From Escherichia coli (GTDB lineage: Bacteria > Pseudomonadota > Gammaproteobacteria > Enterobacterales > Enterobacteriaceae): a DNA stretch of 64,000 nucleotides. Where the stretch lies: the NCBI RefSeq assembly GCF_003334815.1, contig NZ_QOWO01000004.1. The stretch is one strand, 5' to 3'. Positions within the stretch are counted from its first letter, which is position 1; each line of letters starts with the position of its first letter. Under the pieces are notes generated by a model. It saw only the letters and a program-made list of their open reading frames with translations. It ran no database searches and had not been told where the DNA came from. The position numbers and the translations under genes were made by a program. This document shows positions 29,482 to 64,000 of this stretch, piece after piece.

Positions 29482-30417
29482 TTACTTAAACCATCCAATA
29501 ATAAACAAAACTTTAAAAAGCACATCATCAATGAACTTAACTCTTTTTACATGCCCGGAAAAAACATATCTCAATCTTTTCACAAGGCTTGCTTGAGACT
29601 CTACAAAACCATGACTTATTTCGTATCCTGCTTCTTTCTTATGCATTAAACAATATATGGAGACTAAATCCATTTGAAGCGATAGCAAATGCCTTCCATT
29701 TGACTTATATTTTTTGATCTGTTTAAATCTATTACACAGAATGTTCTTAAGACCAGACTTTATACCTACAACATTATTATCATGCTGCCTATAACTTAGG
29801 TAGCTATTATGGTCATATATTAGGTGGCCAAATGTTCTTGCCAATATTAAAAAAAACCAATCATGCATAACAATACGATTGGCAATATTGACTTCATTAA
29901 TATCCAAGTATAATTTACGTAAAGATTGGTTAAAGACAAAAGTACAACCTGGAGCACAATTCTCAATCAAAATATTGTTTAAAGAAAAATCACTCTGAGA
30001 ATTATAACGACCAATATGATTTAACTCTTTGTCAACATAGTTATATGAGGAGCAATATCCTATTGCTATATCTTGCTTATATTTAATAATCTCAGTTGTA
30101 GCTGCAATCAATTTAAGAGGTTCCCATATATCATCCTGATCGCAAAAAGCGTAATAGTCATAGTCTCCAACATTCTCAACCAACCACAAAAAACTGGCTA
30201 TGACACCAATGTTATCACCCTCATACAAAAATATAGAATCATCCTTTGATATATACTCTTTAATAATTTCACATGTTGAATCAACTGAACCATCATCTCT
30301 TATATGAATATGTAAATCGAAATCTCTATAGCATTTTGTTATTGAGTCCAATTGTTCGCTAATATACTTCTCCCCATTATAACTCGATAATAAAACAGCC
30401 ATGCTTTTTAATTTCAT
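29482..30417 (-). CDS. glycosyltransferase, GT2 family (rhamnosyltransferase-like)
   Basis: N-terminal AVLLSSYNGEKYI...DDGS motif of GT-A enzymes; start placed at the ATG (MKLKSMAVLL) downstream of the tool GTG start. Confidence 0.75.
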   Translation of the reverse strand: MKLKSMAVLLSSYNGEKYISEQLDSITKCYRDFDLHIHIRDDGSVDSTCEIIKEYISKDDSIFLYEGDNIGVIASFLWLVENVGDYDYYAFCDQDDIWEPLKLIAATTEIIKYKQDIAIGYCSSYNYVDKELNHIGRYNSQSDFSLNNILIENCAPGCTFVFNQSLRKLYLDINEVNIANRIVMHDWFFLILARTFGHLIYDHNSYLSYRQHDNNVVGIKSGLKNILCNRFKQIKKYKSNGRHLLSLQMDLVSIYCLMHKKEAGYEISHGFVESQASLVKRLRYVFSGHVKRVKFIDDVLFKVLFIIGWFK

Positions 30418-30483
30418 TTTCCCCACATTATTAATCCCGATTTTGATTTATATACATTAATAGCGCCAAACAATAGCCATAAT

Positions 30484-30595
30484 CGCATATAGCATATAGC
30501 ATATAGCATATAGCATATAGCATATAGCATATAGCATATAGCATATAGCATATAGCATATAGCATATAGCATATAGCATATAGCATATAGCATAT
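30484..30595. repeat. perfect heptanucleotide tandem repeat (AGCATAT), 15 perfect units plus 1 imperfect
   Basis: Counted directly: units begin at 30491 and recur every 7 nt to 30595; lies between the wzy stop (30604-30606) and the downstream GT2 start (30417). Confidence 0.95.
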
Positions 30596-30603
30596 TATTA
30601 TGC

Positions 30604-31647
30604 TTACAATGTCGAATACTCATTTAAAATCTGAAGGTGATATATATTAATATAAAACATAATAAAGCATATTCCTATAACCGCTAGTTTTGCAAACTTT
30701 ATTTGTCTAAAAAGAAGGGGCAAGGATGGTAGTAGAATTATTTCACTAATGGCAAAAAACTCACTAATGCGCAAAGAGAATACTGGCATGGAAGATAATA
30801 TAATAAAAGCAAGCGGAGATAATGAATAAATTTTAATAATAAGCACCTGTTCACGAGGTAAGATTCTTTTCCGTGAAAAAACAAAAGATAATCCAACTAT
30901 AAATAAATGCAATATTTGCATTACAGAAAAAATATTGACAGGAACAAAGTCAGCACCTTGACTTTGGCTAATATAGTCATTAAATTTATATTGTACATAA
31001 GAAGAAGGAATATATTTGAATAATGTTAAGAAATTTATACCGATATAAGAACAACAATATGCCACAATTAATGTCAAATAATAAATAAAGATATATCTTG
31101 AGCTAACTGCATTAGTATCAAATGCGAGAACAATAAAAAACAGCAACGCAGTAATATGAAATGTTGATGCGAGCAAAATCAACATCACAAAACTTATGAT
31201 ATTTTTGTTTTTTGCATATTGTAACACTGAATATAATACTATGGCCCCCGCAACTCCAGCTCGAATCTGAGTCAGATCTTGCAGTATAAATGTATTTGAG
31301 TAATACACAAGTACAGATAGCAGTAAAAATGGTGAGGATTTTTTAATTATATTATATTTTAAGGAGACAGATATCAGCGCAAAAACAATAAAAACAAAAT
31401 AATATCCATTAAATATATTAACAGCAATAAAACTTATTAATTTAAATGATGGCTCTATTGGATAAAATAAGTTATTTGCTGACTCAAAAATTAGCGTAAT
31501 ATAGTTTGTATAATCCCTATCGACAAACTCGCTTCGGAATGCACACATTAAAAGTAAAAAAAACATTATTACTTTTAACACATATTTCTGATTCGGCAGA
31601 AAAGATAGAATAGAAATGCATATAAATATCGTGAGGTATAAAAACAT
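30604..31647 (-). CDS. wzy: O-antigen polymerase Wzy (EpsG-like), 347 aa
   Basis: Highly hydrophobic polytopic protein with about 10 TM segments and no glycosyltransferase motifs, inside an O-antigen cluster. Confidence 0.75.
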   Translation of the reverse strand: MFLYLTIFICISILSFLPNQKYVLKVIMFFLLLMCAFRSEFVDRDYTNYITLIFESANNLFYPIEPSFKLISFIAVNIFNGYYFVFIVFALISVSLKYNIIKKSSPFLLLSVLVYYSNTFILQDLTQIRAGVAGAIVLYSVLQYAKNKNIISFVMLILLASTFHITALLFFIVLAFDTNAVSSRYIFIYYLTLIVAYCCSYIGINFLTLFKYIPSSYVQYKFNDYISQSQGADFVPVNIFSVMQILHLFIVGLSFVFSRKRILPREQVLIIKIYSLSPLAFIILSSMPVFSLRISEFFAISEIILLPSLPLLFRQIKFAKLAVIGICFIMFYINIYHLQILNEYSTL

Positions 31648-31725
31648 TACAATCTCATTTCATGATTAGGTTAAATGGCCATTATAAATTAATGTTTAGT
31701 TTAGTTAACTTTACCAATACGTTTA

Positions 31726-32646
31726 TCAAGAATTTGAGAAGTAACCTTTTCCCATTTTACCTACAACACCATCTTTTATTGCAGTCGCTAACAGCTTGAT
31801 TTTTTTTAACTTTGAAGAAGAATTAAGAGTATGGACAACAATAAATAACGGTAACCGGGTAAATAAATACAATCGATGATTAAATGAAAGTTTATCTTTC
31901 AGAATCAGATAAATTGAATTCCTGACTATAAAATAATGCCTAAAATCACTATGCATTATCACATTTTTACCCAATACTCGTTTTGCTTCATTTCCAATAT
32001 TGTGCATCATGACAATATCAGGTATAATATAAGATTGTAATCCCATCTTCTTCGCGCGTTCGCACCATTCGATATCAACGAAATCTATAAACAACTCCTC
32101 ATCCATAAGCCCGATTTTTTGCAGTACCTCCATTCGAATCAAGCTCCCTGAAGAAATTAGAAAATCTGTTTCAAGTGGATGAACACTATGACACAGCTTG
32201 ATTTTATAAAATGGTCTAATATGAATTGCACCTGTTATCTTTCCAGTTTTTTCATCCTTAAAGGCCGGACCTAAAACAGCAACTTGTTTTCCACTATTTA
32301 GAAGTACACGCTCATTAATTAGCAATGTTTTAATCATTTCTTCCGGAACGATACTGTCTTGATCCAAAAATAAAATATGAGATGCTTTCGATTTTTTGGC
32401 ATAATGAATTCCAATGTTCTGAGCTTTTGCAATGCCTAGATTGTAATTTAGTCGATAATGTTCAATTTTTTCTCCATACGACTCAAACTCAGAATCAGGT
32501 ATTTTTAAATTAGACTCATCTGTGTTGTCGATAAGAATAACCTTGTCTACTTGCATAATTATACTTTTCAGTAATCCATGTATGCGTACAATTTCAGGTC
32601 TGAAAAGGACCACTACTGCAATAATACATTTATCTTGTTCTGTCAT
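31726..32646 (-). CDS. glycosyltransferase, GT2 family (306 aa)
   Basis: GT-A fold signatures including an FLDQDS motif; likely rhamnosyltransferase type. Confidence 0.75.
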   Translation of the reverse strand: MTEQDKCIIAVVVLFRPEIVRIHGLLKSIIMQVDKVILIDNTDESNLKIPDSEFESYGEKIEHYRLNYNLGIAKAQNIGIHYAKKSKASHILFLDQDSIVPEEMIKTLLINERVLLNSGKQVAVLGPAFKDEKTGKITGAIHIRPFYKIKLCHSVHPLETDFLISSGSLIRMEVLQKIGLMDEELFIDFVDIEWCERAKKMGLQSYIIPDIVMMHNIGNEAKRVLGKNVIMHSDFRHYFIVRNSIYLILKDKLSFNHRLYLFTRLPLFIVVHTLNSSSKLKKIKLLATAIKDGVVGKMGKGYFSNS

Positions 32647-32671
32647 GTTTTACCTCAGGGCAAGGTTACTA

Positions 32672-33762
32672 AAGCCCGCGCCCCGCAAGGACTGACGCGA
32701 GCTAGTCTCTGCCATAGATGTTCTTCTCATCTTACGTGTAAACTCTGTCTTAGATACTTTATGCTTCTTCAAAATATTAAGGCGATATGTCTTATGAATT
32801 ATGCCTGGATATAATTCTTATGCATTTCCTCTTCTTATTTTGCTGTCATCTTCATTCATTGCCACATCCAGACACCAGTGCAACTTACTCTCTTGGTGCC
32901 AGTGGTTTCGAATCGCTGATATAATATCTGACCGTCATTTCTGGCTCCTTCTTTTGTTCTGCTATTTTTTACCGAAAGTAGTCTGCCACGCAAAATTTTT
33001 TCAGTCCTTTTCATTCAAATGTGAAATCAATAATTTCATTAGGAATATCTAAACAATATGAAGACGGATTTTTTCTCTGTCGCGACTCTTTCAGTAATTA
33101 CGTAACTGTCATGCTTTGGATTACTTAATTCTTTCAGAAGAAAATTTACTCAAAGGCTTTATTAATCCGCCCCTGATTTCCTTTTACTGCGAATAAATAA
33201 TCGACTCCCTGTTTTTGTATCTTTTCTGCAAAATCATTCTGGCACCCCAGCGCATCAGTTGTAATAATTTTTTTTAATATCTAAATGTTAATTAGTTGAG
33301 GGATAGCTGTAATCTCAGTGGATTTCTCATCTGTCTTGATCTGTCAGAGAACAAGACTGAGCATTGTTGAGAACGCTCTAATGACATGAATCGCTTCTTT
33401 GCGGCGAGTTTTTTCATAAGAGTACCGGAGCGTTTTTCGAACTATAGCAATGACGTCTTTTTCATTTGACGAATGGAAATCCCTCATCCAGTTAATAATG
33501 CACTCGTGAAATTTTGCAGGAGTGATACATGATACAATTCTGGCAATGGTAACGAGAACAGGAATACCATTTTCTAAATCACTATATTACTTAAAAAAAC
33601 AAAATATGTCTCACCAAATCCTCTATATCTTCCGAACCTTCTGTACCAAAAATGACGACACAAATAGTCAACAGTAGTATATATGACAATTTATGTTTCC
33701 CTTTTCAGGCTTGTCTGTAATCGGGGATAATAGAAATATATTCCATCAATTTTTAGTACCAT
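32672..33762 (-). pseudogene. H-repeat (ISAs1-family) transposase, near full-length but inactivated by frameshifts and stops
   Basis: Minus-strand pieces in different frames match the ISAs1/H-rpt transposase along its length: N-terminal [18 protein letters not shown] and [32 protein letters not shown], middle [34 protein letters not shown]-terminal segment shared with 27893-28155. Confidence 0.75.
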
Positions 33763-33995
33763 TCTGCTCCCCTTATTTTAGCAAGAAGCATTTAAATATA
33801 TATAAGCTATGAAAAACAGTTTAAGTAATGAGGAACACCTCAATTATTGAGCATAAAATGCGAACTATTTACTACAAAAAAGCAGCGTTACGTGATCTTT
33901 CCCTGGGAGACGAACCATTATTTTTTCTATCGGAACTATAATCTTTAATATTTCAGAAAATAAGTTAATAGTCACAATAAGCCTTATATAATATA

Positions 33996-35069
33996 TCAAT
34001 TTTCAAATTCCGTATTGGCACCTTTAAAAATATTTATCAATATTACTTTGGATTCTTCGGTTTGAGATTGAAAATGTGCCAGCACTCTATAATTATTCTC
34101 AACTTTTGTGTATAATTCTTCCATTTTAAGAGGACTACAAAGCTCATCAACTTTAATAAATGAATAGCCTAACGAATTGAAATCACCTATATCAGGAGAT
34201 TTAACAACAGGAACAACACCACATTCAAGGTATTCAATTAATTTTGTCGGGCAGGCAACTCTATTTACAACTATGTCATCTCTTAAAACAAACCCCAAAT
34301 GACATTTAGCCATAACGTTAATTACATCCTCTTTTGGCAATGAATCAACTATTATATCAGTAGCATTAAAACAATTTGCAATTCTACTCTTGAATTCATA
34401 AGTTGAATTTTGTGGGAGAAAAAAATTGAATTTGATATTTTTATTATATGTCCGTTTACTTTCCTCTATCATCAAATCAATATTTTGCCAAGCTTGCATG
34501 CCGCCTGCATAAATGAATTCAAACATATTTGAATTCCATTTGTTCTGATCTACATGGATCTTGTTCTTTTCAAAAATCGGCAATACGATAGATCTTTTGT
34601 CCAAACAGATATGGTATTTATCTTCATAAAACTTTTTCATTGATGAAGTAACATGTATTAATTTAAAACACTTTTGTATTGACATCCTCTCGATTATGTT
34701 ATAAACGAATGCATTTGCTCTTTTACCAAGGAAAATCATTTCCTCAGGAACTACCCCGTGTATATCGAGAATGATCTTTTTATAATCACCAAAAGGAAAA
34801 ATTTTCAACATATTATATACTGAGTGAACATATATTATTGTAGCTTTCTTTAAATATTTAGTTATCGTTAGATTATGTAGAAAATAATTTAGGCTCTCTA
34901 CTTTGCAATTATCGTAAACAGAGATTTTTCTTTTTTTATTTTTTTTAAATGATATATTTAAATAAACCCTCTCCTCATTTTTTGTCAAAGAATCTATTGC
35001 AGCAATTCTTTGAAACATACCATCACGAACATTCTCTGCTGTCGGAAAATCTGCTATAAACAAAATCAT
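33996..35069 (-). CDS. glycosyltransferase (GT-B-like C-terminal domain), 357 aa
   Basis: C-terminal PTKLIEYLECGVVPVV resembles the nucleotide-sugar-binding region of GT4-type enzymes; directly downstream of the 2-epimerase gene. Confidence 0.6.
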   Translation of the reverse strand: MILFIADFPTAENVRDGMFQRIAAIDSLTKNEERVYLNISFKKNKKRKISVYDNCKVESLNYFLHNLTITKYLKKATIIYVHSVYNMLKIFPFGDYKKIILDIHGVVPEEMIFLGKRANAFVYNIIERMSIQKCFKLIHVTSSMKKFYEDKYHICLDKRSIVLPIFEKNKIHVDQNKWNSNMFEFIYAGGMQAWQNIDLMIEESKRTYNKNIKFNFFLPQNSTYEFKSRIANCFNATDIIVDSLPKEDVINVMAKCHLGFVLRDDIVVNRVACPTKLIEYLECGVVPVVKSPDIGDFNSLGYSFIKVDELCSPLKMEELYTKVENNYRVLAHFQSQTEESKVILINIFKGANTEFEN

Positions 35070-35134
35070 ATTACACCACTAATCATATTTCAATGCATTT
35101 ATTAAAATTGCTGATGATATTAATAATCAAAATA

Positions 35135-36271
35135 TTATTTGTTTAAATTATACCAATCAGCCATTATATCTATTATTCGTTTAGATGTTTGACCATCACC
35201 GTATGGATTAGAAGCAGTTGACATTTTTTCATATGCGCCTTTATCGGTCAGCAATAGGTCTAATTCATTAAATATTTTATTTTTATCAGTACCTACTAGT
35301 CTGACCGTACCAGCTGCAACAGCTTCCGGTCGCTCTGTAGTGTTTCTTGTAACTAGTACAGGTTTTCCTAAAGATGGTGCTTCTTCTTGTATACCACCGG
35401 AATCAGTCACAATGATATATGCCTTGTCCATTAAATAAACGAATTGCAAATACTCTAATGGTTCGATAAGGTAGATATTACTTATGCCGCTTAGTATGTC
35501 TTTTACCGGTTTCCGAACTGACGGATTAAGATGTACCGGATACACAAAATTATAATCTTTGAATTTCAATGCTGCGTCACGAATTGCGAAACATATATTA
35601 TCAAAACCAATCCCAAAGTTTTCTCTTCTATGACCTGTTATTAATACAATTCCATTAGCTTTGACATCGAATGGTAGAGTTTTCGCTATTTGTATCTGTA
35701 ATTCTGGCCGTGAACGGATTTTGCTAACAATTGCCATAAGTGCATCAATAACCGTATTACCGACAATATGAATATTTTGTTCAGCTACATTTTCTTTTAA
35801 CAAATTTAATTTTGAGGTCTCTGTTGGAGCAAAGTGCAAATCAGTGATAGCCGCCGTAAGTTTACGATTCCCTTCTTCTGGCCAAGGCGAGTATAAGTCT
35901 CCAGTACGGAGACCTGCTTCTACATGACCGATGCTTACTTGATTATAATATGCAGCAAGGGACGCAGCTAAAGTAGTTGTGGTATCCCCATGAACAAGAA
36001 TCATATCGGGTTTATCTGCTGAAAAGATCACATTTAGCTTGTATAAGATAATGCTAGTCAGCGATACAAGTGTTTGTCCCGGCTTCATTACATTTAAATC
36101 GTAGTCCGGTTTAATTTGGAAAAGTTCTAAAACTTGATCGAGCATTTCACGGTGCTGGCCCGTCACACAAACCTTGCAGCAAAATCTATTATCGCCCTTT
36201 AATTTTTCTATTAAGGGAGCCATTTTTATTGCTTCTGGTCGAGTACCAAATATTAAAAATATCTTTTTCAT
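35135..36271 (-). CDS. mnaA: UDP-N-acetylglucosamine 2-epimerase (non-hydrolysing; WecB/MnaA type), 378 aa
   Basis: MKKIFLIFGTRPEAIKMAPL N-terminus and ...HVEAGLRT... motif of the UDP-GlcNAc 2-epimerase family. Confidence 0.85.
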   Translation of the reverse strand: MKKIFLIFGTRPEAIKMAPLIEKLKGDNRFCCKVCVTGQHREMLDQVLELFQIKPDYDLNVMKPGQTLVSLTSIILYKLNVIFSADKPDMILVHGDTTTTLAASLAAYYNQVSIGHVEAGLRTGDLYSPWPEEGNRKLTAAITDLHFAPTETSKLNLLKENVAEQNIHIVGNTVIDALMAIVSKIRSRPELQIQIAKTLPFDVKANGIVLITGHRRENFGIGFDNICFAIRDAALKFKDYNFVYPVHLNPSVRKPVKDILSGISNIYLIEPLEYLQFVYLMDKAYIIVTDSGGIQEEAPSLGKPVLVTRNTTERPEAVAAGTVRLVGTDKNKIFNELDLLLTDKGAYEKMSTASNPYGDGQTSKRIIDIMADWYNLNK

Positions 36272-36282
36272 GTTGAATTTCT

Positions 36283-37560
36283 TTAAATAAGATGTTGATT
36301 TTTGACTTTACTTATATTACTTAGCAACAGTATGCATAAAAGTAGTTCTCCACTTGATATTGCTACCGCTGCACCATAGCCATTATATAAACCGGCAAGT
36401 AATAAAAGAAAAATTACCGTAAAAATAGCAGAATAAATGATACTGCAACTATACATTTTGGCACAACCTGCAGCACTCAGGATTTGAATACCAAGAACAT
36501 TATTTAGAACGCCAAGACACATCCATGGAGCCAATAAGAAGGCAAAAGCCAGAGTTTCTTGTGGTAAATTTACTCTAGGATATATGATCCACCATGCAAG
36601 TATAAAAATCAAACTCACGATCAGACCTAATAGAACTAAGGGACGTCCAGTGCGGATAGCTGACGACATGCCGACATCAAATGATTCCTTAAACTTCCTA
36701 CAACTATGCGGATAAAGTGACTGCGTCAATGGCGAAAATAATGAAACTATAGCTTTAGCTATTCGCTCTACGACTGCATAAATACCTACAACAGATGGTG
36801 TATGGTATATACCAAGAATAAAAACAGCACTGTTTGTTAGCAGTGTTGAGGCAAGTGTTGCTAAAAAATAATCCCATCCTTCCTTAAGGGATACCATCAT
36901 AAATTTTATAGTAGGTAGCATAAAATTTATATATTTTTTTTGAATGATATATATATTAGCATAAACTCCACCAATAAGCACTGGAAACGCTTGGGATAAA
37001 ATAGCAGTACTAATATCACTTTCATTACGAACGAAATATAATACACAGATACATGAGATTATTCGAGATAATATATTAATGACAGCAACTATTTTTAGTT
37101 TTTCTATCCCCTGATAGAACCATAAAGGGTACATCGAATTAGAAAATGCCCATATGAAGGCACTTACAATTATCGTATAATAATTGCTATCATTAACAAA
37201 GACCCTGCATACAATATCTATAATACTAAATAGCAGAAATGTTAAAACAAATTTAACAAAATTAATTGCATAGTATATACGTGATATTTGACAAATATTA
37301 TCTCTACTTTGAGATATAGCTCGACTGGCACTGTAAGCAAATCCATAATCAATGACAACCTGGAAATACGCCATCAATACCAATGCAAATGCATATTTAC
37401 CAAAGCCATCAATGCCCAAGGTTGTTATAAGATGACCTAGCACGATAATTGGTGAAAGATACGCAACACCTTGTGTGCAAAGTAAATATCCAGCATTATA
37501 TATTACATTTTTGTATTCTTTATTTATCAACAAAGAAACCTCTTGCTTAATTTTACTCAC
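36283..37560 (-). CDS. wzx: O-unit flippase Wzx (MOP superfamily), 425 aa
   Basis: About 12 predicted TM segments; position immediately after rmlC. Confidence 0.8.
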   Translation of the reverse strand: MSKIKQEVSLLINKEYKNVIYNAGYLLCTQGVAYLSPIIVLGHLITTLGIDGFGKYAFALVLMAYFQVVIDYGFAYSASRAISQSRDNICQISRIYYAINFVKFVLTFLLFSIIDIVCRVFVNDSNYYTIIVSAFIWAFSNSMYPLWFYQGIEKLKIVAVINILSRIISCICVLYFVRNESDISTAILSQAFPVLIGGVYANIYIIQKKYINFMLPTIKFMMVSLKEGWDYFLATLASTLLTNSAVFILGIYHTPSVVGIYAVVERIAKAIVSLFSPLTQSLYPHSCRKFKESFDVGMSSAIRTGRPLVLLGLIVSLIFILAWWIIYPRVNLPQETLAFAFLLAPWMCLGVLNNVLGIQILSAAGCAKMYSCSIIYSAIFTVIFLLLLAGLYNGYGAAVAISSGELLLCILLLSNISKVKNQHLI

Positions 37561-38090
37561 CTGTAAAGAAATGGTTGCTTAGAGTCTTTCTCTGATACAA
37601 TAGGCTCATTAATTAGTGGCCAATCTATTTTTATATCTGGATCATGCCAGGCCAAACCACGATCACTGGTTGGAGCATAATAATTCGTCGTCTTATACAA
37701 AAACTCTGCCGTTTCACTCAGCACCAAAAACCCATGCGCAAATCCTTCTGGTATCCACAACTGGCGCTTATTCTCAGCAGATAAATTCACCCCAACCCAT
37801 TTGCCAAAAGTTGGTGACGATTTACGAATATCAACCGCTACGTCAAAAACTTCACCAACAACGCAGCGCACCAACTTTCCTTGTGCATAAGGTTCTAACT
37901 GATAATGCAGTCCGCGTAAAACACCTTTACAAGACTTCGAATGGTTATCCTGGACAAATTCAACTTTGCGGCCTACAGCTTCCTCAAAAACCTTCTGGTT
38001 AAAGCTCTCGAAAAAGAAACCGCGCTCGTCACCAAAAACTTTCGGTTCGAAAATTAATACGTCTGGAATCTCTGTTTTAATTACGTTCAT
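37557..38090 (-). CDS. rmlC: dTDP-4-dehydrorhamnose 3,5-epimerase
   Basis: Cupin-fold RmlC motifs (RGLHYQ, WIPEGFAHGF). Confidence 0.9.
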   Translation of the reverse strand: MNVIKTEIPDVLIFEPKVFGDERGFFFESFNQKVFEEAVGRKVEFVQDNHSKSCKGVLRGLHYQLEPYAQGKLVRCVVGEVFDVAVDIRKSSPTFGKWVGVNLSAENKRQLWIPEGFAHGFLVLSETAEFLYKTTNYYAPTSDRGLAWHDPDIKIDWPLINEPIVSEKDSKQPFLYR

Positions 38091-38094
38091 TTTA

Positions 38095-38973
38095 TTAATA
38101 ACCTTTAATCATTTTTAGCAGGTACTGACCATAAGCATTTTTCTTCAACGGTTCAGCTAATATTTTCACCTGCTCAGCATTGATAAACCCTTTACGGTAA
38201 GCAATTTCTTCTGGACAGGAAACTTTCAACCCTTGACGCTCTTCAATTGTAGCAATGAAGTTGCTTGCCTCAATCAGGCTTTGATGTGTCCCCGTGTCTA
38301 ACCATGCATATCCACGTCCCATCATGGCAACAGATAAACGCCCTTGTTCCATGTAGATACGGTTAATATCGGTAATTTCCAGTTCACCGCGGGCAGAAGG
38401 CTTAAGATTTTTCGCCATTTCTACAACGTCGTTATCATAGAAATAAAGCCCAGTTACCGCATAATTACTTTTTGGCTGTAGCGGTTTTTCTTCCAGGCTA
38501 ATTGCCGTACCGTTTTTATCAAACTCAACGACACCATAGCGTTCAGGATCATTAACGTGATAGGCAAACACCGTTGCACCACTTTCTTTGTTAACAGCGG
38601 CATCCATTAACTTCGGCAGATCGTGACCGTAAAAAATATTATCACCAAGAACCAAAGCACAATCATCACCACCGATAAATTCTTCACCGATGATAAATGC
38701 TTGCGCAAGACCATCTGGACTTGGTTGCACTTTGTACTGAAGATTCAGGCCCCACTGGCTCCCGTCACCCAACAGTTGTTGAAAACGAGGAGTATCCTGT
38801 GGCGTACTTATAATTAGAATATCGCGAATACCCGCCAACATCAGTGTAGAGAGCGGATAATAGATCATCGGTTTATCATAAATAGGTAATAGCTGTTTAC
38901 TGACAGCCATAGTCACAGGATAAAGACGTGTACCAGAACCACCCGCTAAAATAATACCTTTACGCGTTTTCAT
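38095..38973 (-). CDS. rmlA: glucose-1-phosphate thymidylyltransferase
   Basis: [14 protein letters not shown] nucleotidyltransferase motif; 292 aa. Confidence 0.95.
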
Positions 38974-39030
38974 TCCATCATTCCTTTTAATTCATCTTGT
39001 TCCACCATCACGAACAAGATACAAAAACTA

Positions 39031-39930
39031 TTAAATTGCTGTAGTCGTAAATAATTCGTTGAGCATGCGTTTCACACCAACCTGCCAGTCAGGCAAAACA
39101 AGCGCAAAGTTCTGCTGAAATTTTTCTGTATTAAGGCGAGAGTTATGCGGACGACGAGCTGGTGTAGGATAGGCTGTTGTTGATACTGCGTTGAGCTTGT
39201 TGAGTGCAAGGGGAATGCCTGCTTTGCGCGCCTCTTCAAAAACCAGCGCAGCATAATCGTGCCAGGTTGTGGTACCACTGGCTACCAGATGGTACAAGCC
39301 TGCGACTTCTGGTTTATTCAGTGCCACACGAATTGCATGTGCCGTACAATCAGCCAGCAGTTCAGCACCTGTTGGCGCACCAAACTGATCATTAATAACG
39401 GCTAATTCTTCACGCTCTTTTGCCAGACGCAACATCGTTTTGGCGAAGTTATTTCCTTTACCTGCATAGACCCAGCTGGTACGGAAAATTAGGTGCTTCG
39501 CACAATGCTCTTGTAATGCTTTTTCTCCAGCTAACTTGGTTTCACCGTAAACATTTAGCGGTGCGGTTGCATCCGCCTCCTGCCATGGTATTTCACCGGT
39601 CCCCGGAAATACGTAGTCAGTTGAGTAATGAATTACCCAGGCCCCAACTTCATTAGCCGCTTTTGCAATTGATTCAACGCTGGTCGCATTGAGTAATTGT
39701 GCAAATTCGGGTTCTGACTCAGCCTTATCTACTGCGGTATGAGCCGCAGCATTAACAATAACATCAGGGCGAATTTTTTTGACGGTTTCAGCTACACCTT
39801 CAGGATTACTAAAATCACCACAATAATCAGTGGAGTGAACATCAAGAGCAATCAAATTACCCAAAGGTGCCAGAGCACGCTGTAGTTCCCAACCGACCTG
39901 CCCTGTTTTGCCGAAAAGGAGAATATTCAT
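39031..39930 (-). CDS. rmlD: dTDP-4-dehydrorhamnose reductase
   Basis: 299 aa short-chain reductase; [13 protein letters not shown]. Confidence 0.95.
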   Translation of the reverse strand: MNILLFGKTGQVGWELQRALAPLGNLIALDVHSTDYCGDFSNPEGVAETVKKIRPDVIVNAAAHTAVDKAESEPEFAQLLNATSVESIAKAANEVGAWVIHYSTDYVFPGTGEIPWQEADATAPLNVYGETKLAGEKALQEHCAKHLIFRTSWVYAGKGNNFAKTMLRLAKEREELAVINDQFGAPTGAELLADCTAHAIRVALNKPEVAGLYHLVASGTTTWHDYAALVFEEARKAGIPLALNKLNAVSTTAYPTPARRPHNSRLNTEKFQQNFALVLPDWQVGVKRMLNELFTTTAI

Positions 39931-41015
39931 TACTGGCGGCCCTCATAGTTCTGTTCAATCCACGATTGATAAGCACCACTTTTCACATTATCAACCCATT
40001 TTGTATTGGACAGGTACCATTCCACCGTTTTACGAATCCCGCTCTCAAACGTTTCCTGCGGTTTCCAGCCCAATTCGCGGCTAATCTTCTCTGCATCAAT
40101 CGCATAACGGCGATCGTGTCCCGGGCGATCGGCAACATAAGTAATTTGCTCACGGTAAGATTTCTCTTTCGGTACAATCTCATCCAACAAATCACAAATA
40201 GTGAGCACTACATCGATGTTTTTCTTTTCGTTGTGTCCACCAATGTTATAAGTTTCACCCGCTTTACCTTCGGTTACGACGATATATAACGCACGCGCAT
40301 GATCTTCAACATACAGCCAGTCACGAATTTGATCCCCTTTGCCATAAATAGGTAATGCCTTACCTTCCAGAGCATTAAGAATTACTAGTGGAATCAATTT
40401 TTCCGGAAAGTGATAAGGACCGTAGTTATTCGAACAGTTAGTCACAATGGTCGGTAAACCATAGGTACGTTTCCACGCACGGACTAAATGATCGCTGGAT
40501 GCTTTTGATGCGGAATAAGGACTACTAGGCGCGTAAGCTGTCGTCTCAGTAAAGAGGGGTAATTGTTCTTTATTATTTACTTCGTCAGGATGAGGCAGAT
40601 CGCCATAGACTTCGTCAGTAGAAATATGATGAAAACGGAAGCTATTTTTCTTGTCGCCATCAAGAGCAGACCAGTAATTGCGAGCCGCTTCCAAAAGGAC
40701 ATAAGTACCAACAATATTGGTTTCAATAAATGCCGCAGGGCCTGTAATTGAACGATCCACATGGCTTTCAGCAGCCAGGTGCATCACTGCATCCGGCTGA
40801 TGCTGAGCAAAAATCCGCGCCATTGCAGCAGCATCGCAAATATCCGCATGTTCAAAAACATAGCGTTCAGAATCAGAAACATCAGCAAGTGATTCCAGGT
40901 TTCCGGCGTACGTTAATTTATCGACATTAACAACACTATCCTGCGTATTATTTATAATGTGACGAACTACTGCAGAACCAATAAATCCTGCGCCACCAGT
41001 AACAAGTATCTTCAC
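39930..41015 (-). CDS. rmlB: dTDP-glucose 4,6-dehydratase
   Basis: 361 aa; [14 protein letters not shown]ossmann motif and YSASK catalytic motif. Confidence 0.95.
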
Positions 41016-41089
41016 TTTTTTATTCCATATTACTTCAGAGCATGCTGTGAAATTAGCGGCTCTTAGTTTGATTAATAGAGGTATTAATG

Positions 41090-41101
41090 CACGCTACCGC
41101 C
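41090..41101 (-). promoter_or_regulatory. ops element (GGCGGTAGCGTG) within the JUMPstart sequence upstream of rmlB
   Basis: Exact 12-nt ops motif on the minus strand about 75 nt upstream of the rmlB start; this is the RfaH recruitment site class. Confidence 0.85.
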
Positions 41102-41386
41102 CCTGGCTTTACAGCTACCAGAGCACTGCATGCATGCCTACGATGTAGCGAGCGTTACCCACTCGCGCTTAACCCGAAAAATTCAAACGCTAATTGTCTT
41201 ACCAATTCGCCCTGGAAACAAGGAAAATCCTGGAAAACTTTGACTAAAATCCTATTGCTAACTCGTTGTTATTCTGATTGTTTATATAAAACAACGGCAG
41301 GAATATTCGCAACAAATTACTTTCGCCACGAATCTTCACTGCCGTTATAATTTTCTTATCAACCGTTACATCCGGTCAGATTTTCA

Positions 41387-42280
41387 TTATTCGCTTAACA
41401 GTTTCTCAATACCTTTACGGAACTTCGCCCCTTCTTTCAGGTTGCGTAGTCCATACTTCACAAATGCCTGCATATAGCCCATTTTTTTACCGCAGTCGTA
41501 GCTGTCACCAGTCATCAGCATTGCATCAACAGACTGTTTTTTCGCCAGTTCGGCAATGGCATCTGTCAGTTGGATACGTCCCCATGCACCTGGCTGAGTG
41601 CGTTCAAGTTCCGGCCAAATATCTGCAGAAAGCACATAGCGACCAACGGCCATGATGTCTGAGTCCAGCGTCTGCGGCTGATCCGGTTTTTCGATAAATT
41701 CAACAATGCGGCTGACTTTACCTTCACGATCCAGTGGTTCTTTGGTCTGAATAACGGAGTATTCAGAGAGGTCACCCGGCATACGTTTTGCCAGCACCTG
41801 GCTACGGCCCGTTTCATTGAAACGCGCAATCATGGCAGCAAGGTTGTAACGCAGCGGATCGGCACTGGCGTCGTCGATCACAACGTCTGGCAGCACCACG
41901 ACAAATGGGTTGTCACCAATGGCGGGTCGTGCACACAAAATGGAGTGACCTAAACCTAAAGGTTCGCCCTGACGTACGTTCATAATGGTCACGCCCGGCG
42001 GGCAGATGGACTGAACTTCCGCCAGTAGTTGACGCTTCACGCGCAGTTCAAGAAGAGATTCTAATTCATAAGAGGTGTCGAAGTGGTTTTCGACCGCGTT
42101 CTTGGACGCGTGAGTTACCAGGAGGATTTCTTTGATACCTGCAGCCACAATCTCGTCAACAATGTACTGAATCATTGGCTTGTCGACGATCGGTAGCATC
42201 TCTTTGGGAATCGCCTTAGTGGCAGGCAACATATGCATCCCAAGACCCGCTACAGGAATAACTGCTTTTAAATTCGTCAT
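41387..42280 (-). CDS. galF: UTP-glucose-1-phosphate uridylyltransferase paralog GalF
   Basis: Start at [30 protein letters not shown]; 297 aa. Confidence 0.9.
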
Positions 42281-42454
42281 TATTTCATCCACCTGTAAAA
42301 TGGTTGCTGAATTATAGCTTGTTCGATTTTTTTCGCCAGCATCAATTACCCTGAATTGATTACTGAATTACTTGTGATGTTACGCCGCTTCGTTGTGGAT
42401 TGCAGTAGCATTGTTCCTAAGTATGGCTCCATTTTTCCAGGAATGGTCGCAAAT

Positions 42455-46418: not shown

Positions 46419-46607
46419 GCCTGATGCGACGCTGGCGCGTCTTATCAGGCCTACAAGACCCGAGCACAGAACCGTAGACCGGATAAGGCGTTCACGCCGC
46501 ATCCGGCATTCAGTGCCTGATGCGACGCTGACGCGTCTTATCAGGCCTACAGGTCCCGAGCACAGAACCGTAGGATGGATAAGGCGTTTTACGCCGCATC
46601 CGGCAAC
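46419..46607. repeat. REP/BIME cluster (at least two REP units) between wzxC and wcaK
   Basis: Repeated gcctgatgcgacgctggcgcgtcttatcaggcctac and ggataaggcgtt(c/t)acgccgcatccggca units. Confidence 0.85.
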
Positions 46608-51013: not shown

Positions 51014-51102
51014 ATCGTTACCCTTTTTCAGGCAATAGTTGGCCCTGACCGAAGCGGCCAATTTTATTTTTGTCGTTATTTACACCGCGGTTTCGCATTC
51101 AT

Positions 51103-52644: not shown

Positions 52645-53868
52645 TTATCCCCGAATATCATTTATAAATTGACGTAACACGTTCTCTTTATCGAGCGTGC
52701 GTTCGGCATATTCACGTGCCACCGTGTTGTGTTTGGGCAGCAGGAGCGCCTGACGGATCCCCGCCACCAGCGCCTCGACCGATTCCGGTTCTACGCAAAC
52801 CGCAATGCCCGGAAAGGTTTCGCAAAGCTGCCCCAGTTCTGTGTGGGCTTCTGCGGTAATCACCGCGTTACCGCCTACCGCCAGAATATTGGTCAGTTTC
52901 GACGGCAATACGGCATCTGCCGCGCCGCGTTTTTGCACCACCAGATGGCAATCGCCCATCTTCAGCAGTGCGGGTAAAGCGTCATACGATTGCAGCGGGA
53001 AAAATTGCATGTTGCGCAGTCCACGCTGCTGCGCCATTTTTTCCAGCCGCGCTTTGCCGCCGCCTTGCCCGACAATGGCAAAAATCAGCGGTTCATCGCG
53101 CAGGCGATCGGCAGCTTCAATAACGTTTTCCAGCCCCTGCTTTTCACCAATATTGCCGGAGTAAAGAATGATTTTTTTGTTATCCGGCAGGCCAAGCTGG
53201 TTACGAAGGGCATCAACATCGGCATCTGCAACATGCTGAAAACGGGCAATTTCCGACCAGTTGGGGAAGAAAATGACGTTTTCCGCCGCCACGCCTTTTT
53301 CGATGGCTTTATTCATCATCGAACGCGAAATCGTGGAGACGTTATCGACGTTATGCAATCCGCTACGTTCGAACGCCGTTGCCAGCTGTGCCACTTTGCC
53401 GCCTTTGCCTTTTCCGGCAAGGCCCAGCCCCAGCATGGCGTCCACTTCGTAATCCTGAATATGCAGCACGGTACGCGCACCAGAGAGTTTCGCCAGCAGG
53501 CGCATTCCCGGCGTGCAAAACAGCGTTGGCACCACGCCGATAATGCGATCCGGCTTCCAGCGACGTTGCGCCATCAGAGGAAAGAAACTGCTGACGGCAA
53601 AACTGCTGAGATGTAACAGGCGTTTCAGGGTGCTCGGCTGTTTTGGCACGTACAGCGGGCAGCGCCACACCGTGGCGGCCCCCTCTTCTCGTTTGTAGCG
53701 CCAGGCGGAATAGTTCTCGCCCACCTGCCACTGCGGGTAGTAAGGCGGTGCGGTAATAACCCGCACCTCATGACCTTGTGCCGCCAGCCATTCCACCATC
53801 TCGCCGGTGTATTTGCCGATACCGGTTAACTCCGGCGAGTAGTTAATGCCGTAGACCAGTATTTTCAT
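52645..53868 (-). CDS. wcaI: colanic acid glycosyltransferase WcaI (GT4)
   Basis: 407 aa. Confidence 0.9.
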
Positions 53869-61697: not shown

Positions 61698-63860
61698 TTA
61701 TTTCGCATCCGACTTATATTCGTATTCGTAATAGCCATAATCCTGATACGCGCTGGCGCGGCGGAAGATGGAGTTCAGAATCACCCCTTTCACCGGAATA
61801 CCGTTTTGCTCAAAGCGGCTCAGACTGGTTTCCACTTCTTTCAAGGTGTTGACCGCATAACGCGCCACCATTAACGTGGTTCCGACATGACGACCAACAA
61901 TTGCCGCATCGGTCACTGCCAGAATCGGCGGCGTATCAATCAACACCAGGTCATAGTTTTTACTCGCCCAGTTCACCAGTTCGGCAAAGCGTTCGCTCAT
62001 CAACAGTTCAGAAGGATTTGGCGGCACCTGACCGCGCGGGATCAGGTCAAATTTGGCAATAGAGGTCGGTTTAGCAGCGGTAGTAATATCGCCCTGACCA
62101 ATCAGAATTTCCGACAGGCCATTAACGTTATTAGTGCCCAGCAGCTCGTGGGTGTAGCCTTTGCGCATATCGCAGTCGATCAACAACACCCGTTTATTGG
62201 TCTGGCTGATCACCGCCGCCAGGTTGGCGCAGACAAAGGTTTTACCGATTGACGGGCTAACCCCGGTCATCATCAACACATTGTTCTGTGCCTGCATCAT
62301 CGCGAAGTGCAAACTGGTACGCAGACTGCGGATGGCTTCAATCGCCAGATCGGTTGGATTCCCCATCGCCAGTAGCTGGCTCTGTTTATAGCGTTTAATC
62401 CCTTTGATGGTTTTGACGCTATCGCGCGCTTTCTGCCATTCCGACAGCGGGATGCTGGCATAGACGCTGATACCGTGTTCTTCCAGCACCTGCGGGCTTT
62501 CGATGCCGCGATTAAACAACGAGCGCAGCAGCACACCCACGATAGAAAGCATCAGGCCAAGGATAATCGCGCCGAGGATAATCAGCCCTTTCTTCGGTTT
62601 CAGCACGCCAGGCTGGGTGATTGCCGGGTCAACAATGCGCACATCGCCGACGGTGCTGGCTTCGGTGATTTTCAGCTCCTGCTCTTTATTCAGCAGTTGC
62701 ATATAGACCTGCTGACCAGACTCGACATCGCGGGTCAGGCGCACAATCTCCTGCTGGGTTTTCGGCATCGCCGTTACGCGACCGTTAAGTTTGGCTTTCT
62801 CTTCTTCCAGCGCCTGACGTTTCTCCAGCAGCGTGCGGTACGCCGGGTGAACTTTGGTGTACAGCTTGGAGATTTCCGCCTCTTTAAAGGTCAGTTCGTT
62901 CAACTGCGCGTCGATGTTCACCATCGAATCGAGCACCGCTTTCGCTTCCAGCGGCAGATCAACAGAATCTTTATCCTGACGGAAGGCATTCAGTTTGTTT
63001 TCGGCAACATCGAGGCGGCTACGTACTTCCGGTAACTGTTGCGCGAGGAAAGCGAGGCTTTTCGACGCTTCCGCCGATTTGCGCTCAATATTTTGTTCCT
63101 GATAGTTACGGGCGATGCTGTTAAGAATGTCGCGGATCTGTTCGCGATCTTCACCGGTATAAGTCAGGCTCAGTACGCCTGCGTCTTTGCCGTTCTCCGT
63201 TACCGTCAGGCTGTTTTGCAGTTGGTTGATCATCCCCAACGTGGAGTATTTGGTGACGGTAAACTCACTGCCCGGGCGGGCGTGAATGGCTTCAACCATC
63301 AGCGTGACGCCTTCTTTTTTCAGCATCTGGCCCGCTTGCCCACGGGCGCTAAAGCCGCCATCACTGCTCAGGGTGTAGTTTTTATTGTCCAGCACATTAA
63401 GCGTAAACACCTGGTCCGCCATCTCTTTCGGGCGGTTAAAGGTGGTCACTTTCACCGTCTCGTTCTGACGTCCCATCAAACGATCCCAGCCCGCACCGAA
63501 AATCGGGAACGTGTTTTTGCTCACCGCAATATCGAGGTCGAGATCGTCCACCGTTTTACCAAGCACCAGGCGCGAACGAATCAACTGGATCTCGGCGTCC
63601 GATGCAGGCGGTTTGTTGGCTAATGCCGAACCAATGTCCTGCACTAACGAATTGCCGCTGTTTTGCTCGATTTGTACCAGTGCGTCGGCACTATAAATCG
63701 GCGTGGCGAAGAAGGTGTAAACCACGGCACAGAGGGCAAATACAGCGGTGATGCCAATCACCCACCAGCGCGCTTCAATGACGGTGCCGACCAGGCGACC
63801 AATATCGATTTCATCACTGCCCGTTACCGGAGCGGCATGTTGTTTTACTTTTTCTGTCAT
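61698..63860 (-). CDS. wzc: tyrosine autokinase / polysaccharide co-polymerase Wzc
   Basis: Start at MTEKVKQHAAP (720 aa); Walker A region and C-terminal tyrosine-rich tail YQDYGYYEYEYKSDAK. Confidence 0.95.
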   Translation of the reverse strand: MTEKVKQHAAPVTGSDEIDIGRLVGTVIEARWWVIGITAVFALCAVVYTFFATPIYSADALVQIEQNSGNSLVQDIGSALANKPPASDAEIQLIRSRLVLGKTVDDLDLDIAVSKNTFPIFGAGWDRLMGRQNETVKVTTFNRPKEMADQVFTLNVLDNKNYTLSSDGGFSARGQAGQMLKKEGVTLMVEAIHARPGSEFTVTKYSTLGMINQLQNSLTVTENGKDAGVLSLTYTGEDREQIRDILNSIARNYQEQNIERKSAEASKSLAFLAQQLPEVRSRLDVAENKLNAFRQDKDSVDLPLEAKAVLDSMVNIDAQLNELTFKEAEISKLYTKVHPAYRTLLEKRQALEEEKAKLNGRVTAMPKTQQEIVRLTRDVESGQQVYMQLLNKEQELKITEASTVGDVRIVDPAITQPGVLKPKKGLIILGAIILGLMLSIVGVLLRSLFNRGIESPQVLEEHGISVYASIPLSEWQKARDSVKTIKGIKRYKQSQLLAMGNPTDLAIEAIRSLRTSLHFAMMQAQNNVLMMTGVSPSIGKTFVCANLAAVISQTNKRVLLIDCDMRKGYTHELLGTNNVNGLSEILIGQGDITTAAKPTSIAKFDLIPRGQVPPNPSELLMSERFAELVNWASKNYDLVLIDTPPILAVTDAAIVGRHVGTTLMVARYAVNTLKEVETSLSRFEQNGIPVKGVILNSIFRRASAYQDYGYYEYEYKSDAK

Positions 63861-63862
63861 TC

Positions 63863-64000
63863 TTATACCTGCTCTGCGTTCAATGCCTGCGCCCACTGGC
63901 GGGCAGACCGTTCAAGTAATGTGTACACCGCTGCAAACGTTTCCCGGCTTTTGCGATACGGATCGGGGATTTCACATTCGTTATCCCAGTGACCAAACAG
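63863..64000 (-). CDS. wzb: low-MW protein-tyrosine phosphatase Wzb, C-terminal 45 codons only (gene runs off the window)
   Basis: Minus-strand translation ...LFGHWDNECEIPDPYRKSRETFAAVYTLLERSARQWAQALNAEQV with stop at 63863-63865, 2 nt before the wzc start. Confidence 0.85.
   Translation of the reverse strand: MFGHWDNECEIPDPYRKSRETFAAVYTLLERSARQWAQALNAEQV

Follow-up and report, generated by a model that had tools for sequence, protein, structure and literature searches.

The 371-nt spacer between galF and rmlB in this Escherichia coli contig (41016-41386, from the galF stop at 41387 to the rmlB GTG at 41015) is, judged by its conservation, the canonical species-wide E. coli O-antigen (rfb) leader, and it has all of the sequence features that define a JUMPstart/ops leader. 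Our analysis makes it highly likely that the leader element functions in loading RfaH, and probable that the whole O-antigen cluster behind it is one transcription unit whose distal genes need RfaH; the combined description, a canonical rfb leader that would load RfaH and on whose read-through the distal genes would depend, is very likely right. Coordinates refer to the window, i.e. the whole 64,000-nt stretch of DNA that was analysed, and the features of the spacer and its upstream flank are as follows.

41387-42292, minus strand: galF, the upstream flanking gene (NCBIfam TIGR01105 GalF, 685 bits; RefSeq annotation of the identical locus)
41285-41346, minus strand: hairpin followed by GUUUUAUA past galF, a putative galF terminator
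41193-41237, minus strand: block of invariant alignment columns with a candidate sigma-70 promoter
41016-41188, minus strand: predicted untranslated leader RNA, placed from the promoter block and the rmlB start
41090-41128, minus strand: JUMPstart element, 39 nt (Rfam RF01707 covariance model)
41121-41117 / 41107-41103, minus strand: 5-bp JUMPstart stem (Rfam)
41090-41101, minus strand: ops dodecamer GGCGGTAGCGTG, an exact match on the non-template strand
41091, minus strand: predicted ops pause position U11, within ops

The ops dodecamer has a single match in the 64-kb window with up to one mismatch allowed (0.17 expected by chance), and it is identical to the ops12 oligonucleotide of the RfaH:ops structural study (PMC5995543). 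In that study ops12 is the RfaH recognition sequence, with G4, G5, A7 and G8 essential and T11-G12 driving the pause (PMC5995543); here the GGCGGTAG core and the T11-G12 pause dinucleotide are both present, on the strand shared with all of the cluster genes. The Rfam JUMPstart model, called independently of the sequence-only reading of this DNA, matches over its full length (model positions 1-38 of 38) scoring 60 bits where the gathering threshold is 35, with E = 2.6e-11 calculated over the entire window. The 39-mer itself, CAGTGCTCTGGTAGCTGTAAAGCCAGGGGCGGTAGCGTG, lies in non-coding DNA just 5' of the first polysaccharide-cluster gene, ends 74 nt upstream of the rmlB GTG, has the same sequence and the same placement in all nine genomes that carry the cluster, and is identical in the K-12 leader. 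The sequence-only reading had placed an exact ops dodecamer upstream of rmlB, and both the motif search and Rfam bear this out; the region that it marked as the JUMPstart/ops region, 41040-41386, covers nearly the entire spacer, and one point alone has to be amended, the feature and the cluster both being minus-strand.

Could such a match be due to chance, or be a relic without function? Two additional GGCGGTAG 8-mers do occur in the window, at 6195-6202 and at 52875-52882 (the second inside wcaI), in line with the 1.3 expected by chance. Both, however, are in coding DNA and lack the T11-G12 pause dinucleotide, and in strain CFT073 ops-like sites within coding regions are without RfaH binding (PMC9765446). 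The full 12-mer of the spacer instead sits inside a 60-bit JUMPstart, at a conserved position, and is invariant across divergent leaders, so that chance or a dead relic is effectively refuted as an explanation.

Two further details of the element were seen along the way. On its 3' side the Rfam stem ends at 41103, 12 nt before U11 (41091), a spacing close to that of hairpin-stabilised pauses. One aligned leader, that of strain 09A19CPO009 (NZ_CM148343.1), has GGCGGTAGCATT in place of GGCGGTAGCGTG (alignment columns 296-308), which makes it a natural O-antigen leader without the ops T11-G12 pause dinucleotide.

Megablast matched the 371-nt spacer in 3707 of 5426 complete E. coli genomes and at least 80% of it in 3271 of the 5426, with most matches 95-99% identical. 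Against a K-12 derivative the identity is 95.4% across 99% of the spacer, and against CFT073 it is 98.3% over query positions 1-298, i.e. from the galF stop to the last ops base. It is because of this near-identity to experimentally tested leaders that RfaH control of the leader can be proposed here. The regulator would be at hand: rfaH (located in K-12) is found at a coverage of at least 80% in 5426 of 5426 complete E. coli genomes, including all nine with the cluster, its locus lying outside the window. We aligned six divergent leaders, which precede rmlB, a GT4 gene or the wzx of O6 or O43. In those with a first gene other than rmlB (CFT073 O6, O43 and the GT4-first leader), similarity to the window ends at the last ops base (41089/41090), and JUMPstart thus forms the 5' boundary at which the variable O-antigen region recombines.

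Across the six leaders there are two invariant blocks, one being JUMPstart/ops and the other 41237-41193. The latter contains TTGTTT-17 nt-GACAAT (41221-41193, minus strand), a pattern unique in the window, and in CFT073 a sigma-70 ChIP peak and a predicted start site lie upstream of ops (PMC9765446). From the position and conservation of this block, the promoter of the O-antigen operon is most probably located there, within the spacer, rather than being the galF promoter. The O7 wb* study published by Marolda and Valvano in 1998 reportedly found a 173-nt untranslated leader; if that length is transferred to this locus, as we assume it can be, transcription would start near 41188, a few bases past GACAAT.

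A different promoter has been catalogued by genomic SELEX for RpoD in the K-12 rfbBDACX spacer, namely TTCACA-18-TGGAAT (PMC3946193), and this pair is present in the window as well, uniquely, at 41051-41022. As it lies downstream of ops, its use would mean that most rmlB transcripts bypass ops and that JUMPstart is irrelevant to them. We regard this as highly improbable. Initiation would fall on or beside the rmlB GTG (41015) and leave neither a leader nor a ribosome-binding site, the pair is absent from aligned leaders in which the first gene is not rmlB (e.g. CFT073 and O43), and the CFT073 sigma-70 peak and predicted start are upstream of ops (PMC9765446). As the catalogue's table presents them, moreover, the hexamers seem, on our own interpretation, to have been chosen through a sequence match inside the spacer that was bound (PMC3946193). 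TTCACA-18-TGGAAT is probably a mis-assigned hexamer pair within a spacer that does bind RNA polymerase, and the invariant block upstream of ops stays the preferred promoter candidate.

Directly past the galF stop, the ViennaRNA-based scan for hairpins with U-tracts found a 54-nt hairpin (41346-41293, -27 kcal/mol) followed by GUUUUAUA. The same helix is recovered in the fold of the whole spacer, whose z-score of -4.25 it largely drives, and of the six aligned leaders five have the hairpin, with substitutions. Its probable role is that of a galF terminator, insulating galF from the O-antigen promoter. Since the promoter most likely lies in the spacer downstream of this hairpin, the operon is probably not co-transcribed with galF, and the statement in the sequence-only reading that the cluster is 'transcribed from the galF side' is right as a direction, the genes and ops all being on the minus strand. 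The predicted 173-nt leader RNA, in turn, folds with a stability not above that of shuffled sequences (z = -1.46), for which reason we claim no RNA structure in it beyond the 5-bp Rfam stem. An 87-aa plus-strand ORF antisense to the leader (41087-41350) was dismissed as a mechanical ORF.

Downstream of the leader, 12 cluster genes and then gnd are all encoded on the minus strand. Gene order was taken from the RefSeq annotation of a 99.9%-identical copy (NZ_AP021896) together with NCBIfam, and the list below also gives the insertion-sequence (IS) remnants, the repeat array and the first terminator past the cluster.

39930-41015, minus strand: rmlB (rfbB), NCBIfam equivalog, RefSeq rfbBDAC, GTG start
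39031-39930, minus strand: rmlD (rfbD), NCBIfam equivalog, RefSeq rfbBDAC
38095-38973, minus strand: rmlA (rfbA), NCBIfam equivalog, RefSeq rfbBDAC
37557-38090, minus strand: rmlC (rfbC), NCBIfam equivalog, RefSeq rfbBDAC
36283-37560, minus strand: flippase-family wzx (RefSeq)
35135-36271, minus strand: wecB (RefSeq; TIGR00236, 503 bits)
33996-35069, minus strand: orf7, 357-aa hypothetical protein or glycosyltransferase (RefSeq)
32656-33905, minus strand (operon orientation): degraded near-full-length ISAs1 (H-repeat), RefSeq 'ISAs1 family transposase, frameshifted; internal stop'
31726-32646, minus strand: GT2 rhamnosyltransferase (RefSeq, NCBIfam)
30604-31647, minus strand: EpsG-family wzy (RefSeq)
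30485-30595, minus strand: heptamer array (TATATGC)n, given as the transcribed-strand unit, in the wzy-GT2 gap (TRF)
29482-30417/30426, minus strand: second GT2 (RefSeq, NCBIfam)
28342-29472, minus strand: GT4 (RefSeq, NCBIfam)
27893-28163, minus strand: short ISAs1 fragment (RefSeq partial ISAs1 pseudogene)
26191-27819, minus strand: LTA-synthase/sulfatase-family ORF, last cluster gene (RefSeq 'LTA synthase family protein')
24647-26053, minus strand: gnd (NCBIfam), followed by ugd and wzzB
24622-24594, minus strand: first canonical hairpin and U-tract downstream of the cluster, after gnd

The order along the minus strand is thus rfbBDAC, wzx, wecB, the 357-aa gene, ISAs1, GT2, wzy, GT2, GT4, the ISAs1 fragment, the LTA-synthase-like gene, gnd, ugd and wzzB. 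Intergenic gaps from rmlB to the LTA-synthase-like ORF measure -4 to 78 nt, with the exception of three long untranslated gaps of 1349 nt (the ISAs1 pseudogene), 186 nt (the heptamer array) and 522-642 nt (the ISAs1 fragment, the length depending on the start chosen for the LTA-synthase-like gene). The earlier picture of genes running on one strand with short gaps down to the sulfatase-family ORF, interrupted by two H-repeat remnants and a heptamer array, therefore holds. GC content is 28-36% across 26-38 kb as against 44-51% in the flanks. Even at E = 10, wzx, wzy and orf7 have no NCBIfam match, and together with the generic RefSeq names of wzx and wzy this points to an O type without a name in NCBIfam/RefSeq. 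The LTA-synthase/sulfatase-family ORF has weak NCBIfam matches to phosphoglycerol transferases.

Some variation in the annotation of the cluster should be recorded. The longest LTA-synthase-like ORF in the window is 542 aa, and its start varies in RefSeq among near-identical genomes (27699 or others), giving coding sequences of 1491, 1497, 1509 and 1620 nt; between these starts there is a weak hairpin and U-tract (27712-27697). In strains N18-04097 and G5, two of the nine, many cluster genes are frameshifted, which may reflect either faulty assembly or genuine decay of the cluster, and G5 has an additional IS5 insertion in rfbD. Outside the cluster, a convergent his operon starts at 14808, and Rfam matches above their gathering scores were also found for the His operon leader (14808-14931, plus strand), the algC RNA motif upstream of cpsG/manB in the colanic-acid cluster (51018-51067, minus strand), the REP-derived naRNA4 (46477-46547, plus strand) and STnc240 (12436-12510, minus strand).

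The first ISAs1 remnant is 81.7% identical over 1299 nt to ISEc1 of an O10 strain, and at 32656-33905 there is no minus-strand ORF of at least 70 aa. The second ISAs1 match, the short fragment, repeats the 3' part of the first remnant in direct orientation (families D2-D4, 75-84% identity) and is 87.9% identical over 149 nt to ISEc1 in the same O10 strain.

The heptamer array is the most unusual feature near the leader. It follows wzy and precedes the final two glycosyltransferase genes and the LTA-synthase-like gene, and has a period of 7 with 15.9 copies at 100% matches by TRF, 15 of them full copies. Elsewhere among the nine genomes it numbers 7, 9, 15 (with one variant unit), 16, 17, 21, 21 and ∼37 copies in clusters that are otherwise 99-100% identical, with invariant flanks to the array, and it is absent from the homologous wzy-GT2 gap of O10, in which the surrounding genes are ∼90% identical. 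The array is intergenic, so a shift of reading frame is impossible, and its length range of 49-259 bp rules out a promoter-spacing switch; with both excluded, any effect of the heptamers would have to act through the transcript. No promoter-like site spans the array in the minus-strand promoter scan, and the array was rejected as a source of -10/-35 hexamers after a hand check gave a poor -35 match at any spacing and the scan reported no minus-strand site. That it is a contingency locus, its length tuning downstream expression via RNA structure, RNA stability or polarity, we consider a very long shot. If true, it would provide heritable, reversible variation in O-antigen completion; E. coli is not known for repeat-driven phase variation of its O antigen.

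We searched the minus strand from 42400 to 21900 for hairpins with U-tracts. Clear examples occur past galF (the -27 kcal/mol hairpin above), past gnd, and past wzzB (22090-22057, -24 kcal/mol), and between the leader and gnd this minus-strand scan found no strong hairpin with a U-tract, only weak or ORF-internal candidates. The best hairpins in the gaps reach -8 to -14 kcal/mol and have poor U-tracts. In a generic scan for promoters and terminators, the cluster was not enriched in either. The cluster spans ∼15 kb, and its low-GC composition is typical of H-NS-bound, RfaH-dependent loci. In CFT073 ChIP-seq detects RfaH from the one ops of the leader onwards and throughout the O-antigen unit, and without rfaH the occupancy of RNA polymerase falls to near background distally, with traveling ratios of 0.1-0.34 versus wild type (PMC9765446); according to a review, RfaH at ops is needed by both the waaQ and the rfb operon (PMC8745692). 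On these grounds we infer that the distal genes of the window cluster depend on RfaH read-through, which is the best-supported reading of the locus.

The main competitor to this reading grants that ops loads RfaH and supposes that the genes past the IS remnants are driven mainly by internal promoters, whether in AT-rich DNA, at the ends of ISAs1 or close to the heptamers, so that the cluster would consist of several transcription units with largely RfaH-independent distal genes. Minus-strand sigma-70-like hexamers are indeed found just upstream of wzy (31708-31681) and just past GT4 (28268-28241), both with 10 of 12 matches, as well as in the first ISAs1 remnant (33291-33264), and some distal expression could accordingly be RfaH-independent. 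Cryptic promoters are also common in H-NS-silenced, AT-rich genes (PMC9765446), and the block between the two ISAs1 remnants resembles an imported module. Promoter-like sites are not enriched, however (60 versus 68.3 +/- 9.0 in shuffles), the module boundaries are without a terminator, and in CFT073 hardly any polymerase reaches the distal genes once RfaH is removed (PMC9765446). Weighing these points, we think it unlikely that internal promoters supply most of the distal expression. A related expectation of the sequence-only reading was that distal expression depends on antiterminated read-through across the remnants and the array; the untranslated gaps have C/G ratios of 0.63-0.79, i.e. G above C, and as these are not obvious Rho-loading sites, polarity at the IS remnants may be weaker than was assumed there.

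In the preferred reading, with a single unit under RfaH, a sigma-70 promoter in the galF-rmlB spacer (candidate TTGTTT-17-GACAAT, 41221-41193) would start minus-strand transcription, and RNA polymerase would pause ∼85-100 nt later at ops (41101-41090). There the non-template strand of ops would form a small hairpin and recruit RfaH, which would then be retained on the polymerase, excluding NusG, suppressing pausing and recruiting ribosomes. Polymerase-bound RfaH would suppress Rho- and H-NS-dependent termination and so allow one transcript to extend over ∼15 kb of low-GC cluster as far as the LTA-synthase-like gene and probably gnd as well. This long transcript would have to cross the untranslated gaps of 1349 nt (ISAs1), 186 nt (heptamers) and 522-642 nt (ISAs1 fragment).

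JUMPstart/ops and RfaH have been described upstream of O-antigen clusters since the 1990s, and the system has been verified genome-wide by ChIP. The leader studied here is a member of this long-known system and no variant of it, so the finding is real but already known and offers nothing new on mechanism. Its value is mainly for annotation, as it settles in which direction the cluster runs (minus strand), where its 5' boundary lies (the last ops base) and by what logic it is regulated, and marks the window as E. coli. A more modest point is that 1.35 kb plus ∼0.6 kb of untranslated IS debris lies within an operon that is intact in several strains, so that the extent to which RfaH shields untranslated RNA from Rho and H-NS could reasonably be studied in this natural case.

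Among the closest known systems, the K-12 galF-rfbB leader shares the 39-nt JUMPstart, ops12, the promoter-like block, the rmlB-proximal part and the first genes rfbBDAC. It differs in the serotype-specific genes downstream, the two ISAs1 remnants and the heptamer array belonging to the window cluster; the K-12 O-antigen cluster carries an IS5 in wbbL. For O7, the wb* study is said to have placed the promoter in the galF-rmlB spacer and to have found a leader with JUMPstart/ops and stem-loops as well as RfaH-dependent expression. The O7 leader is reported to have ∼173 nt with stem-loops, whereas the fold of the leader here is not significantly above shuffles. The 'wzx' unit of CFT073 (O6), a verified RfaH target, has in common with the window an ops a few tens of nucleotides before the first ORF and low-GC downstream genes, but its ops-to-start distance is 58 nt versus 74 nt here (the range given for CFT073 being 40-67 nt; PMC9765446), and homology to it stops right after ops because its first gene is wzx, not rmlB. 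The more distant waaQ (rfa), hlyCABD, kps, tra and wza-wcaM systems have the same ops core and loading mechanism but different promoters, leaders and cargo (PMC5995543, PMC9765446, PMC8745692). In the neighbouring colanic-acid cluster, wzc is at 61698-63896 and the wza JUMPstart falls outside the window, past its end.

The relationship to O10 concerns the cargo rather than the leader. Positions 26000-41400 of the window were compared with the O10 cluster of strain CX21, and the two share rmlBDAC (92%), the GT2-wzy-GT2-GT4 block (89-92%) and the 3' part of the sulfatase-family gene (93%). O10 differs in having rffA, its own wzx and an acyltransferase, in not sharing the wzx-wecB-orf7 segment of the window cluster, and in lacking both the heptamer array and an ISAs1 at the left junction; next to ISEc1/IS1 it has a truncated sulfatase-family gene, whereas that of the window is intact. 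From this pattern of shared and unshared segments, the window cluster is a mosaic relative of the O10 cluster, and the position of the degraded ISAs1 exactly at the left junction of the shared block suggests that the mosaic was assembled by IS-mediated events.
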